Shown in pieces: positions 11,682-14,260 of a stretch of DNA of 64,000 nt. The DNA lies in IMG/VR virus record IMGVR_UViG_3300029288_000059, positions 161,237-225,236 of that record, one strand, 5' to 3'. Origin of the DNA: a virus (lineage: Duplodnaviria > Heunggongvirae > Uroviricota > Caudoviricetes). Each line of letters begins with the position of its first letter. The stretch's first letter is position 1. The notes under the pieces are model-generated. The model made no database searches, was not told where the DNA came from, and worked only from the letters and a program-made list of their open reading frames with translations. Made by a program: the position numbers and the translations under genes.

Positions 11682-11789
11682 GCCGATAGATATTCGCCTT
11701 TTCGGTTAGTAATAACAAGGGTATATGGTGGTGACAACCTCAACTTTGATGCTATTTTAAATAGTTAAGATACCTGAATGTTTATCGGC
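11682..11789 (+). ncRNA. candidate structured RNA, copy 1
   Basis: 14-bp closing stem GCCGATAGATATTC/GAATGTTTATCGGC with two G-U pairs favouring + strand; internal hairpins; motifs shared with 14164-14260. Confidence 0.55.
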
Positions 11790-11848
11790 GATATTCATTA
11801 TATGTGGGTATTAATCAAAGTAATCCATCAATTATTTTAGGATATAAT

Positions 11849-12706
11849 ATGAGAAATGTAATATTGGGTGAAAAGACAACGATAATTAGTACAACTTGTA
11901 ATACTAACGATTATGTTAGTAGTGGAGTTGATAATATTAGGACTAAGATGTCAATTCTAAATTTGTATAGTAATGAAACAATAAGTTGTAATAGACTGTC
12001 TATTAAACTTGATGACGCAGTATTACCAATTAAGAACATACGATGTTCTAAGCAGTTAAAATTAACTATCCCATCATGGAAGGACGACTTGTTTATATTT
12101 GATACAATACAATGTGATAAATTAATATTAGATGGGGATGTTTCACGAATATTATGTACTAAATTATCTTGTAATGAATTATCAATCACGAACTCATCGT
12201 TAAAATCAGTTATGAACTTTATAAAAAATAATAAATTAAAAAATAGTAATGTTAAAAAACTAACAGTAGGAGTGAATGTGAGTGATACAACTAACGTTGT
12301 TAATATTGGTTATGTAAGAAATATCGTACTTATTAATGAGTGGTTCACTCGTTTATCGGATATGCAAAACTTCAAAATTCACAATAACGACACTACAAGA
12401 ATTAAGTTTGGTTCTCATGCCATTACCAACTTGAATATTATTACTAAAAAGAAAGCCTCACTAGAGGATATGATAGTGAAGAAATGTAATATCCAATGCA
12501 AGAATATAAACTTACAATCGTCCGAAATCACTCACTTGACATTGACGGGGGATAATGTTACATTAACAAATATAAATGACATTCACTCTTTAAATTTAAA
12601 CGTATCAAAAACGTTAAAAATTCAGAATTGTACATTTGTTAATGATTGCACTAACGTTATTCGTAATTGTGGTGCAAAAATAGTTGAATGGGATATAATA
12701 TGCTAA
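11849..12706 (+). CDS. beta-solenoid-like paralog family protein
   Basis: C-terminal IRNCGAKIVEWDII; start placed at ATG 11849. Confidence 0.6.
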   Translation: MRNVILGEKTTIISTTCNTNDYVSSGVDNIRTKMSILNLYSNETISCNRLSIKLDDAVLPIKNIRCSKQLKLTIPSWKDDLFIFDTIQCDKLILDGDVSRILCTKLSCNELSITNSSLKSVMNFIKNNKLKNSNVKKLTVGVNVSDTTNVVNIGYVRNIVLINEWFTRLSDMQNFKIHNNDTTRIKFGSHAITNLNIITKKKASLEDMIVKKCNIQCKNINLQSSEITHLTLTGDNVTLTNINDIHSLNLNVSKTLKIQNCTFVNDCTNVIRNCGAKIVEWDIIC

Positions 12707-13575
12707 GAAAGATAGTCACCACATATAACAGTGCGAAAGAAGTATTAACTTATGCACCAACAGACGTTATTGATTTTAGCAATACGTCAAACGCAACGAT
12801 TACAACTAATAATACTTTCATTAATAATTATAGTGGTTGTATTAATGCTAAGTCTATTACAGTAGGTATGAATGATTCTTCTACTAATGATAATCTTAGT
12901 ATAAATGCAGATACTATAAGACTCATCTATGACTATTTATGTCCTAAGAGAGAAATTCATTACGTACCAAATAATTGGAAGTTAAAAACCAAACGGTTAA
13001 TAATATCTGCACAGAATTCCACGTGTGAGCCTATTATTGATGCTGAATGTGATGTGTTAGAGTTGAACATGAGTACTGCACAGTTTAGTACGTTAAATTG
13101 TAAAAACATTAAACTGTCCAATCCAAGACTTGAGTATTTGACGTACTTGAAACAATTTAATATACCCAAGTATTCTATTCACAGTCTTAATTGGGACTAT
13201 GTATTTGATGATGTAAAGTTAAACTTAGAACGTATTGCTAATGATTCATTAGTAATCAATAATAGCAAATCCGCCATTATCAAAGCCAGTAGAGTTGTTG
13301 GCCTTACTATTAATGACAGTCAAACTATTAATATAACAGTATTTAATGCCAAGAATGCAACAATACACGGACAAAATGTTAAGTTATCTAATTGTGAATT
13401 GGGTGCTTCAAACATAACAGCACATGATTTACAGTTAGATAATGTTACTATAAATGATAATTTATCACTAAAAGTAACAGGGAAATTAGTTATAAACAAA
13501 TGCACTTTTAATGATTCAATTATTGAAGTTATTAAAAATTGTGGTGCGAAAAAAGTGGAATGGGAGATACTATAA
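12688..13575 (+). CDS. beta-solenoid-like paralog family protein
   Basis: C-terminal IKNCGAKKVEWEIL, nearly identical to the upstream paralog's tail. Confidence 0.6.
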   Translation: MGYNMLRKIVTTYNSAKEVLTYAPTDVIDFSNTSNATITTNNTFINNYSGCINAKSITVGMNDSSTNDNLSINADTIRLIYDYLCPKREIHYVPNNWKLKTKRLIISAQNSTCEPIIDAECDVLELNMSTAQFSTLNCKNIKLSNPRLEYLTYLKQFNIPKYSIHSLNWDYVFDDVKLNLERIANDSLVINNSKSAIIKASRVVGLTINDSQTINITVFNAKNATIHGQNVKLSNCELGASNITAHDLQLDNVTINDNLSLKVTGKLVINKCTFNDSIIEVIKNCGAKKVEWEIL

Positions 13576-13958
13576 TGGCATATAATGGTTGGCAACTTAC
13601 AGAACGAGGCAAAGCTAAAATACTTAACAATATATCAGTACGTGCGTTTAAGAATATATGTTTTGACCATGTAACTTATGATTTCACTAAGGATAAGAAA
13701 GACTTAATGACATTGCCCGAAATAACTAGTATAACAATAACTGGTTATATTGATAATACGTATGTTAACGGATTTCGGGTAACAATAGGTGATATTTCGG
13801 AACAACCTCGTTCACATAAACCATTACATATAACATTATCATGTAAGGATGGACATAAACCAGTAGAGACGGGAAATATAACTCGTATCCAAAGTAAAAT
13901 AACTGATTTAAGGTTAATTTTAAATCAAGATTTTGTACCACTAACTTATCATCCATAA
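13575..13958 (+). CDS. 2H phosphoesterase
   Basis: Two HxT motifs (DHVTY; PLHITLSC..G.KPV); TAATG coupling to the upstream gene. Confidence 0.7.
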   Translation: MAYNGWQLTERGKAKILNNISVRAFKNICFDHVTYDFTKDKKDLMTLPEITSITITGYIDNTYVNGFRVTIGDISEQPRSHKPLHITLSCKDGHKPVETGNITRIQSKITDLRLILNQDFVPLTYHP

Positions 13959-13968
13959 GGGTTAACTA

Positions 13969-14166
13969 ATGTCAAAGAAGATACCACTTTTATTGTTATA
14001 TATAACTATGTTGTTTTGTTGGTTTACAATGTTATTTATCGGAACAGTTGTAATTGTTATATGTGATATGGTAGGAAATAAAGCCGAACCAATACATGAT
14101 CTTGTGAACATTGTTTGTACTGGTGAATGGGTTAATACCATTCATAATAAGTTATTTAAGAATTGA
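13969..14166 (+). CDS. small membrane protein
   Basis: N-terminal hydrophobic helix. Confidence 0.5.
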   Translation: MSKKIPLLLLYITMLFCWFTMLFIGTVVIVICDMVGNKAEPIHDLVNIVCTGEWVNTIHNKLFKN

Positions 14167-14260
14167 TGTTGGGATTATAAAGCTGGGACTACGGTGGGTG
14201 AATACCATACAGATTTAATGCTAATATTTAGTTATTAGTTAAGGTGAGTTTCCAACATCA
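14164..14260 (+). ncRNA. candidate structured RNA, copy 2
   Basis: 11-bp closing stem TGATGTTGGGA/TTCCAACATCA; GGTGGGTGAATACC and TTTAATGCTA..TAGTTAAG motifs as in copy 1. Confidence 0.55.

Follow-up and report, generated by a model that had tools for sequence, protein, structure and literature searches.

Three copies of a predicted, uncatalogued structured RNA in the 7-deazaguanine gene region of a phage: a possible self-cleaving ribozyme

The 64,000-nt stretch of phage DNA analysed here, hereafter the window (bases 161,237-225,236 of the 289,811-base virus record IMGVR_UViG_3300029288_000059; 31% G+C), carries three copies of a short intergenic motif, all on the + strand, at 11682-11789 (copy 1), 14164-14260 (copy 2) and 9993-10085 (copy 3). 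Comparison of these copies with one another and with alleles from related strains indicates that the motif is a conserved, structured, + strand RNA, uncatalogued to date and under purifying selection. As to its function, we tentatively favour an undescribed class of self-cleaving ribozyme that would mark cut sites in early read-through transcripts; two rivals, a small RNA excised by host nucleases and a cis-acting binding signal, are close to this reading. A preliminary description of the region had recognized copies 1 and 2 only and missed the third.

The motif comprises a core of about 60 nt and measures 93-111 nt with its outer stem. From 5' to 3' it consists of the 5' outer strand, a variable segment, the sequence GG-W-M-U-A, a hairpin of 3-5 bp with a G-R-K-G-A-M loop, a linker (C)A-R-N, an imperfect 4-bp helix, an internal loop NAUGC/GUUAA(A)G, an AU-rich capped hairpin and the 3' outer strand, with the consensus GG-W-M-U-A, stem, G-R-K-G-A-M loop, stem, (C)A-R-N-U-N3-AUGC, hairpin, GUUAA(A)G. 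Copy 1 has a 15-bp outer stem, an extra GUAA-capped hairpin in its variable segment (11705-11716), GGUAUA at 11720-11725, the short hairpin at 11727-11739 with loop GGUGAC (11730-11735), AUGC at 11749-11752 and GUUAAG at 11764-11769. In copy 2 the outer stem is of 11 bp and its first three bases are the stop codon of a 65-aa open reading frame (ORF); GGACUA (14186-14191) is followed by the hairpin at 14193-14206 with loop GGUGAA (14197-14202), AUGC (14218-14221) and GUUAAG (14238-14243). The outer stem of copy 3, also of 11 bp (9993-10003 with 10075-10085), is unrelated to those of the other copies and encloses GGAAUA (10015-10020), the hairpin at 10022-10033 with loop GAUGAA (10025-10030), CAG (10036-10038), AUGC (10044-10047), a second hairpin (10046-10063) and UAAAG (10064-10068). 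The three window copies agree at thirty columns, many of which lie in unpaired parts. The preliminary description had given copies 1 and 2 an ordered core closed by stems that pair; both stems are present, at 15 bp (14 plus a terminal G-U) and 11 bp, and the order of the core stands, whereas its letters do not: variation affects GGG at its first G, TGA at its T, TTT(G/A), the letters of CTA/TAG and the length of TAAG.

The fold is thus an exchangeable outer stem closing a multi-way junction from which a short hairpin arm and an arm with a receptor-like loop project. We infer that the loops pack together into a tertiary core, with the hairpin loop perhaps docking into the receptor-like loop. 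One reading of the hexaloop is a GNRA-like tetraloop whose closing pair is G-C in copy 1 and G.A in copy 2; in copy 3 the corresponding letters are AUGA. A possible pairing between GGWMU and the bases that follow UAAG would be complete in copies 1 and 2, is reduced to 3 bp in copy 3 and contains a mismatch in the strain allele L327 described below. The conserved AUG of each copy also opens a mini-ORF of 3-6 codons that stops inside the hairpin (11749-11760, 14218-14238 and 10044-10055), reads M-x-(x)-F before its stop in all copies and lies 14-16 nt behind the Shine-Dalgarno-like GGUGA/GAUGA loop. These mini-ORFs are probably incidental, the spacing being too great and stop codons being no surprise in loops rich in AU.

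Folding of the + strand gave z-scores of -3.5 for copy 1 and -2.3 for copy 2 relative to shuffled sequences. The likeness of these two copies alone is modest: their local alignment score was reached in 31 of 20000 shuffles, and each ranks only about 7th to 9th for the other among 9,658-11,590 windows of the genome. The core pattern of the preliminary description occurs just twice in the genome. Two copies by themselves would not prove a family, because their pairwise likeness is near genome-wide chance. The third copy came from covariance models that had not been trained on it. A model built from copy 2 and its L242 allele only (R2), run unfiltered over the whole genome, returned copy 3 as its best non-self match (19.7 bits, E 0.03) and copy 1 at 15 bits, most matches between the two being short plain hairpins; the model built from copies 1 and 2 (R1), which the preliminary description had proposed, matched the copy 3 site as well. 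A descriptor trained on the three copies scored copy 3 at 34.9 against 20.6 for the next site, and together with the final model from all copies it found exactly three copies in the ~290-kb genome, a result that is circular for those three but does speak to the lack of any further ones. The copies span 4.3 kb, and none lies elsewhere in the 290 kb.

Four strain alleles, all from other metagenomes, allowed the fold to be examined further: L242 was recovered through the upstream 65-aa protein, and L327, L329 (identical to L327) and L330 through members of the QueE cluster. L327 provides an allele of copy 1 (L327:2174-2284), L242 one of copy 2 (L242:260-360), which contigs from two other wastewater studies also span, and L327, L329 and L330 provide alleles of copy 3. 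At four-fold degenerate sites of the flanking genes, 37-44% of positions differ from the window. At motif columns identical in the three window copies, 4 of 114 comparisons showed a change, compared with 13 of 96 at the other columns (Fisher p=0.01), an internal contrast that is the fairer test because the adjoining promoter DNA is conserved too. Double changes in the outer stem keep the pairing, from G-C to A-U and from G-U to U-A in copy 1 and from G-C to A-U in copy 2, as do exchanges of the loop-closing pair (A-U, G-U, U-A) and of a pair in the capped hairpin (U-A versus A-U); the helix under the internal loop changes from U-A to C-G between the copy 1 alleles. In the two hairpins 93% of cells are paired, compared with 79% after shuffling, and every slid register is worse, figures that rest on seven related sequences and are not a formal proof of covariation. 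An invariant G-U pair and the G-U exchanges settle the strand as + and favour RNA. In L330 (L330:864-891) the 5' outer strand of copy 3 pairs in a local hairpin with a complement of itself that lies just downstream, in a contig that ends before the 3' side; enclosure by the outer stem therefore does not appear obligatory. We accept the family as real because a third copy emerged from models not trained on it and because the strain alleles show compensatory changes and purifying selection. The earlier suggestion of a structured RNA on the + strand, based on closing stems that are replaced yet still pair, is thereby borne out by the folding z-scores, the invariant G-U pair and the compensatory changes among strains. 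An apparent absence of the element in strain L243/L228 was rejected: L243 runs into a fold-back at its end, and L328, which comes from the same sample, is clearly chimeric in this way. Both L243 (1080-1160) and L328 are inverted fold-back chimeras in assembly 3300045340, and contig ends from that sample should not be taken for biology.

That the motif is no RNA at all, being instead a DNA-level repeat, the end of an insertion sequence (IS), a remnant of an omega RNA or a chance likeness, is very improbable. Besides the near-chance likeness of copies 1 and 2 taken alone, what invites this explanation is that copy 3 lies 45 nt from the end of a TnpB-only IS (10131-11643, - strand) that sits between copies 3 and 1, at the -35 box of the early promoter of copy 1, and is not part of the motif. 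The IS is about 1.5 kb long and occurs in four genome copies 85-90% identical, the others at 67.6-69.1, 77.0-78.5 and 148.0-149.5 kb of the genome sequence C1, plus short end fragments. The motif lies outside the element boundary and is absent from the three other IS copies, and the invariant G-U pair and the G-U/A-U/G-C exchanges work on the + strand only. In L327, which lacks the IS, queE is followed by copy 3, then after about 45 nt by the early promoter, and then by copy 1 and the orthologue of a 291-aa gene, with copies 3 and 1 only 93 nt apart (without the IS, the three window copies would span 2.8 kb). Because this IS-free allele keeps both copies, the TnpB element arrived later and copy 3 does not represent its omega RNA. 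Together with the pairing analysis, the allele largely refutes a DNA-level or chance origin.

The preliminary description could match the element to no known family, and our searches agree. With Rfam 15 no copy gave a match at the gathering threshold, and at E<=10 only irrelevant sub-threshold matches appeared: MIR4221 for copy 1 (19 of 100 bits), plastid psbJ-3 for copy 3 (12.5 of 61.7) and none for copy 2. No known ribozyme family was found anywhere in the genome. The hammerhead core consists of CUGANGA and GAAA around three stems; CUGANGA is absent from both strands of the six complete sequences, and GAAA never occurs on their + strand. Twister ribozymes have a UAA/GA-NNN internal loop, an invariant catalytic G and pseudoknots T1/T2 to an L4 loop ending in AAG; here Rfam gives no twister match, UAA faces G, A or U, and the motif has no loop of the L4 type. 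The UGCAAG loop of twister sister, the ARGCG linker with pseudoknot of pistol, GACG-UAAAA of hatchet and the GUA(C/U)AUUA loop B of the hairpin ribozyme are absent or occur in one sequence per strand, again with no Rfam matches. HDV-like and theta ribozymes form a nested double pseudoknot with a catalytic C in J4/2 and a GG forming P1.1; the J4/2-like segment of the motif is UAA(A)G with no C. A corresponding P1-like pseudoknot, of a 5' YAAR with the linker UUUR, was considered and rejected for copy 1: it looked covarying across the window copies, yet the copy 1 allele in L327 breaks it, and the double change there speaks for the helix beneath the receptor-like loop. For copies 2 and 3 it is still a candidate, with a double change in L330 that fits it. 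The motif is thus a member of none of the known ribozyme families compared, although it may still work like them.

The internal loop recalls the 11-nt GAAA tetraloop receptor (CCUAAG/UAUGG), with which it shares an AU bulge opposite UAA(A)G beside two stacked pairs. The exact receptor (UAUGG/CCUAAG) is absent from the six complete sequences, whereas the variant NAUGC/GUUAA(A)G is present in all six. The motif differs from the receptor in having G-C/U-G in place of C-G/C-G (GUUAAG/NAUGC, the first base being G, A or U), in its reversed orientation relative to the junction, and in a partner loop that is GUGA-, GGGA- or AUGA-like rather than GAAA. The extra A of copy 3, with a U-G pair below, resembles the A-insertion variant CCUAAAG/UAUGG, which has been studied (bioRxiv 10.1101/2024.03.11.584472). 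In overall plan the motif is also reminiscent of the c-di-GMP-I riboswitch (RF01051), likewise a closing stem with two arms, one bearing a GNRA-type and one a receptor-type loop; unlike that riboswitch it has no Rfam match or GEMM consensus, its receptor is reversed, its arms are much shorter and two of its three copies lie 3' of genes. The orphan motifs DUF3800-I, drum, FuFi-1 as well as skipping-rope (Weinberg et al. 2017, PMC5737381) are comparable in being compact, highly conserved, located outside 5' untranslated regions and of a function not known, and unlike the phage motif in having 3' terminators and a fixed protein partner; the phage motif matches none of their models.

The placement of the copies relative to genes and promoters bears on function. 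Copy 1 follows a promoter, as had been described: it starts about 14 nt past the inferred transcription start of an early, sigma70-type promoter (11634-11661, + strand) that lies some 20 nt upstream, belongs to a genome-wide promoter family and is intact in IS-free L327. Forty-six matches to a simple sigma70 promoter pattern occur genome-wide, many with an extended TGTTATACT-TAAATTATAAAC tail that defines a strong early-promoter family. Copy 2 starts on the stop codon of the 65-aa hydrophobic ORF (13969-14166, + strand), the last gene of its block. The ATP-dependent DNA ligase gene downstream (14360-15691, + strand), which copy 2 had been said to precede, is not led by it in a regulatory sense, since the ligase has its own early promoter (14294-14322, + strand; largely kept in L242) between copy 2 and its start codon. 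A candidate antisense promoter within copy 2 was discarded, its -10 box being lost in L242. Copy 3 starts 5 nt past the stop codon of a queE-like radical SAM gene (9133-9987, + strand), the last of a folE-phosphoribosyltransferase (PRTase)-queE block, and the next promoter again lies downstream. No terminator-like site or U-tract terminator follows any copy.

With one copy at a 5' position and two at 3' positions, a riboswitch role common to all three is ruled out. It is therefore improbable that the motif is a riboswitch, or an element with ligand-gated cleavage, that responds to a 7-deazaguanine intermediate (preQ0 or 7-carboxy-7-deazaguanine, CDG) or to GTP, even though all copies lie inside the folE/queE...queC region (folE, PRTase and queE upstream; the ligase, a Gat-like gene and queC downstream), the junction nucleotides are conserved and copy 1 occupies a 5' leader and has a hairpin downstream of it, close to the ribosome-binding site. 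Copies 2 and 3 lie 3' of genes, with a promoter downstream and no expression platform behind them; copy 1 leads orphan repeat genes, not pathway genes; and no copy matches preQ1-I, -II or -III in Rfam. The preQ0 riboswitch contemplated in the preliminary description would fit one copy of the three.

The same mixture of 5' and 3' positions leads us to prefer a self-cleaving ribozyme over a riboswitch. The tertiary core would catalyse in-line attack at one phosphate, leaving ends with a 2',3'-cyclic phosphate and a 5'-OH. Copy 1 would free one early transcript of its triphosphorylated 5' leader, copy 3 would cut a run-on transcript after queE, releasing the folE-queE block, and copy 2 would cut one after the 65-aa gene, releasing the block of orphan and 2H phosphoesterase genes; such cuts could tune the stability of the released blocks, and the co-transcribed 2H phosphoesterase could open the cyclic phosphates. 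Location at gene boundaries, clustering, size, replaced outer stems and fixed loop nucleotides all fit a ribozyme, and a gene resembling the cyclic phosphodiesterase (CPD) domain of tRNA ligase between copies 1 and 2, together with the Rnl1-type RNA ligase of the genome, counts in its favour. The full proposal, a new natural class built on a reversed 11-nt-receptor-like loop, cutting early transcripts serially and having its ends processed by a co-transcribed cyclic phosphodiesterase, is slightly more doubtful than cleavage as such. Size, an exchangeable outer stem, fixed loop nucleotides and closely spaced copies at 5' and 3' gene boundaries in a phage are shared with the small bacterial and phage ribozymes that self-cleave (hammerhead, twister, twister sister, pistol, hatchet, HDV-like/theta and hairpin), which reportedly cluster and have been proposed to process polycistronic RNA (PMC6765202; PMC5737381).

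Several considerations weigh against cleavage. The motif contains no known catalytic core, as judged from Rfam and the signature motifs, so that a new class is required; no conserved core or Rfam model of the small ribozymes matches it, and no known ribozyme was found in the genome. Local duplication explains the clustering equally well. The 2H neighbour may be a coincidence, as 2H enzymes are common in T4-like phages, where they also serve against cyclic-oligonucleotide-based anti-phage signalling (CBASS). Facing away from the junction, the receptor-like loop has the reverse of the arrangement seen in P4-P6 or c-di-GMP-I, and docking of the hairpin loop is for that reason not assured. Moreover, several structured motifs nominated on like grounds failed to cleave (PMC6765202; PMC5737381).

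A receptor-type loop so oriented would suit an intermolecular partner, and this, along with the long, G-U-rich, sequence-free outer stems of all complete copies, is what one would expect of stable small RNAs excised by host nucleases, for instance by RNase III at the 11-15 bp outer stem with subsequent trimming. The core of such an RNA could bind a host or phage protein, or oligomerise through loop-receptor contacts, and act in trans as a decoy or counter-defence; three copies would raise its dose, and the phage carries another RNA gene. This gene encodes a permuted, two-piece transfer-messenger RNA (tmRNA) behind an early promoter (L235:17663-18056; genome C1 ~137,063-137,456), scores above the Rfam gathering thresholds (RF04321, RF01849) and was missed by ARAGORN; it may hint at a proteobacterial host. 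Copies 2 and 3 have neither a promoter nor a terminator of their own, however, the 5' outer strand in L330 is sequestered in a local hairpin, and no specific neighbouring gene is common to the three copies. On balance we regard an excised small RNA as rather unlikely, and a cis-acting signal on its own transcript, to be bound by protein or polymerase, as slightly more so. The signal could be a put/nut-like antitermination element, given that some 14 nt separate copy 1 from the inferred start site upstream, an arrangement like that of HK022 put, and that the GNRA-like loop recalls lambdoid boxB; or it could be a stabiliser that blocks exonucleases, in that copies at block ends could block 3'-5' decay. 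No boxA was found in the copies, and read-through would be unneeded at copies 2 and 3, as these precede fresh promoters, while for stabilization a plain hairpin would suffice, yet 30 columns are fixed.

Of the genes that a ribozyme would process, two related orphan genes of about 290 aa and repeat type lie behind copy 1 (11849-12706, 285 aa, and 12700-13575, 291 aa; both + strand). The 285-aa gene is missing from L327 (2393-2896 compared with window 11849-12706), where the orthologue of its 291-aa paralogue directly follows copy 1. Between copies 1 and 2 lies the gene for a 127-aa 2H phosphoesterase (13575-13958, + strand) that resembles the tRNA-ligase cyclic phosphodiesterase domain PF08302: its sequence shows two HxT-type motifs, its feature score is 0.97, the nearest Atlas clusters, mostly viral, comprise 19-35% PF08302 members, and the structural template-modelling (TM) score is 0.74. 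A tRNA-ligase-CPD-like cyclic phosphodiesterase is a lead rather than an assignment, and the protein may act in the healing of RNA ends or against CBASS. The genome further encodes a T4 Rnl1-type RNA ligase and an AAA_33 kinase-like ORF; reverse transcriptase, RtcB and Ro60 found no match in this 79%-complete genome. Elsewhere in the window, at 62432-62672 on the - strand, lie a tRNA-Ser(UGA) gene and another, tRNA-like gene whose anticodon loop is abnormal.

The phage, which shares 65-68% capsid-protein identity with Rak2/GAP32-like jumbo phages, is found in landfill and wastewater metagenomes. Homologues outside the lineage were absent from the records searched. Pattern scans of IMG/VR, JGI metagenomes and GTDB returned matches that are coding or have no stems, the blanks for JGI metagenomes and GTDB being weak because those patterns predate copy 3 and were too strict. 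Each copy was compared by BLAST with 50,697 phage records and gave no match; models R1 and R3, applied to 28 and 80 records including complete Rak2/GAP32-like phages, found nothing above 25 bits outside this phage genome; and a model search of 151 genomes from one bacterial class gave no match. Candidates L004 and L257 were rejected as lying inside ORFs, and L103 as reading like coding sequence (16.9 bits with R3). Confinement of the motif to one phage lineage is not proven, because the two largest scans used too strict a consensus.

The narrow known range, a single uncultured phage lineage, limits the interest of the motif. To our knowledge, only about ten classes of natural self-cleaving ribozymes have been described. 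The role of such ribozymes in bacteria and phages is largely open (PMC6765202). A candidate of about 60 nt, with three diverged paralogues and four strain alleles, suffices for a short cleavage assay with compensatory controls. Should it cleave, the motif would represent a new catalytic fold and a concrete case of ribozyme-based operon processing in a phage; should it not, it would still constitute an uncatalogued RNA family under purifying selection that contains a natural variant of the tetraloop receptor.

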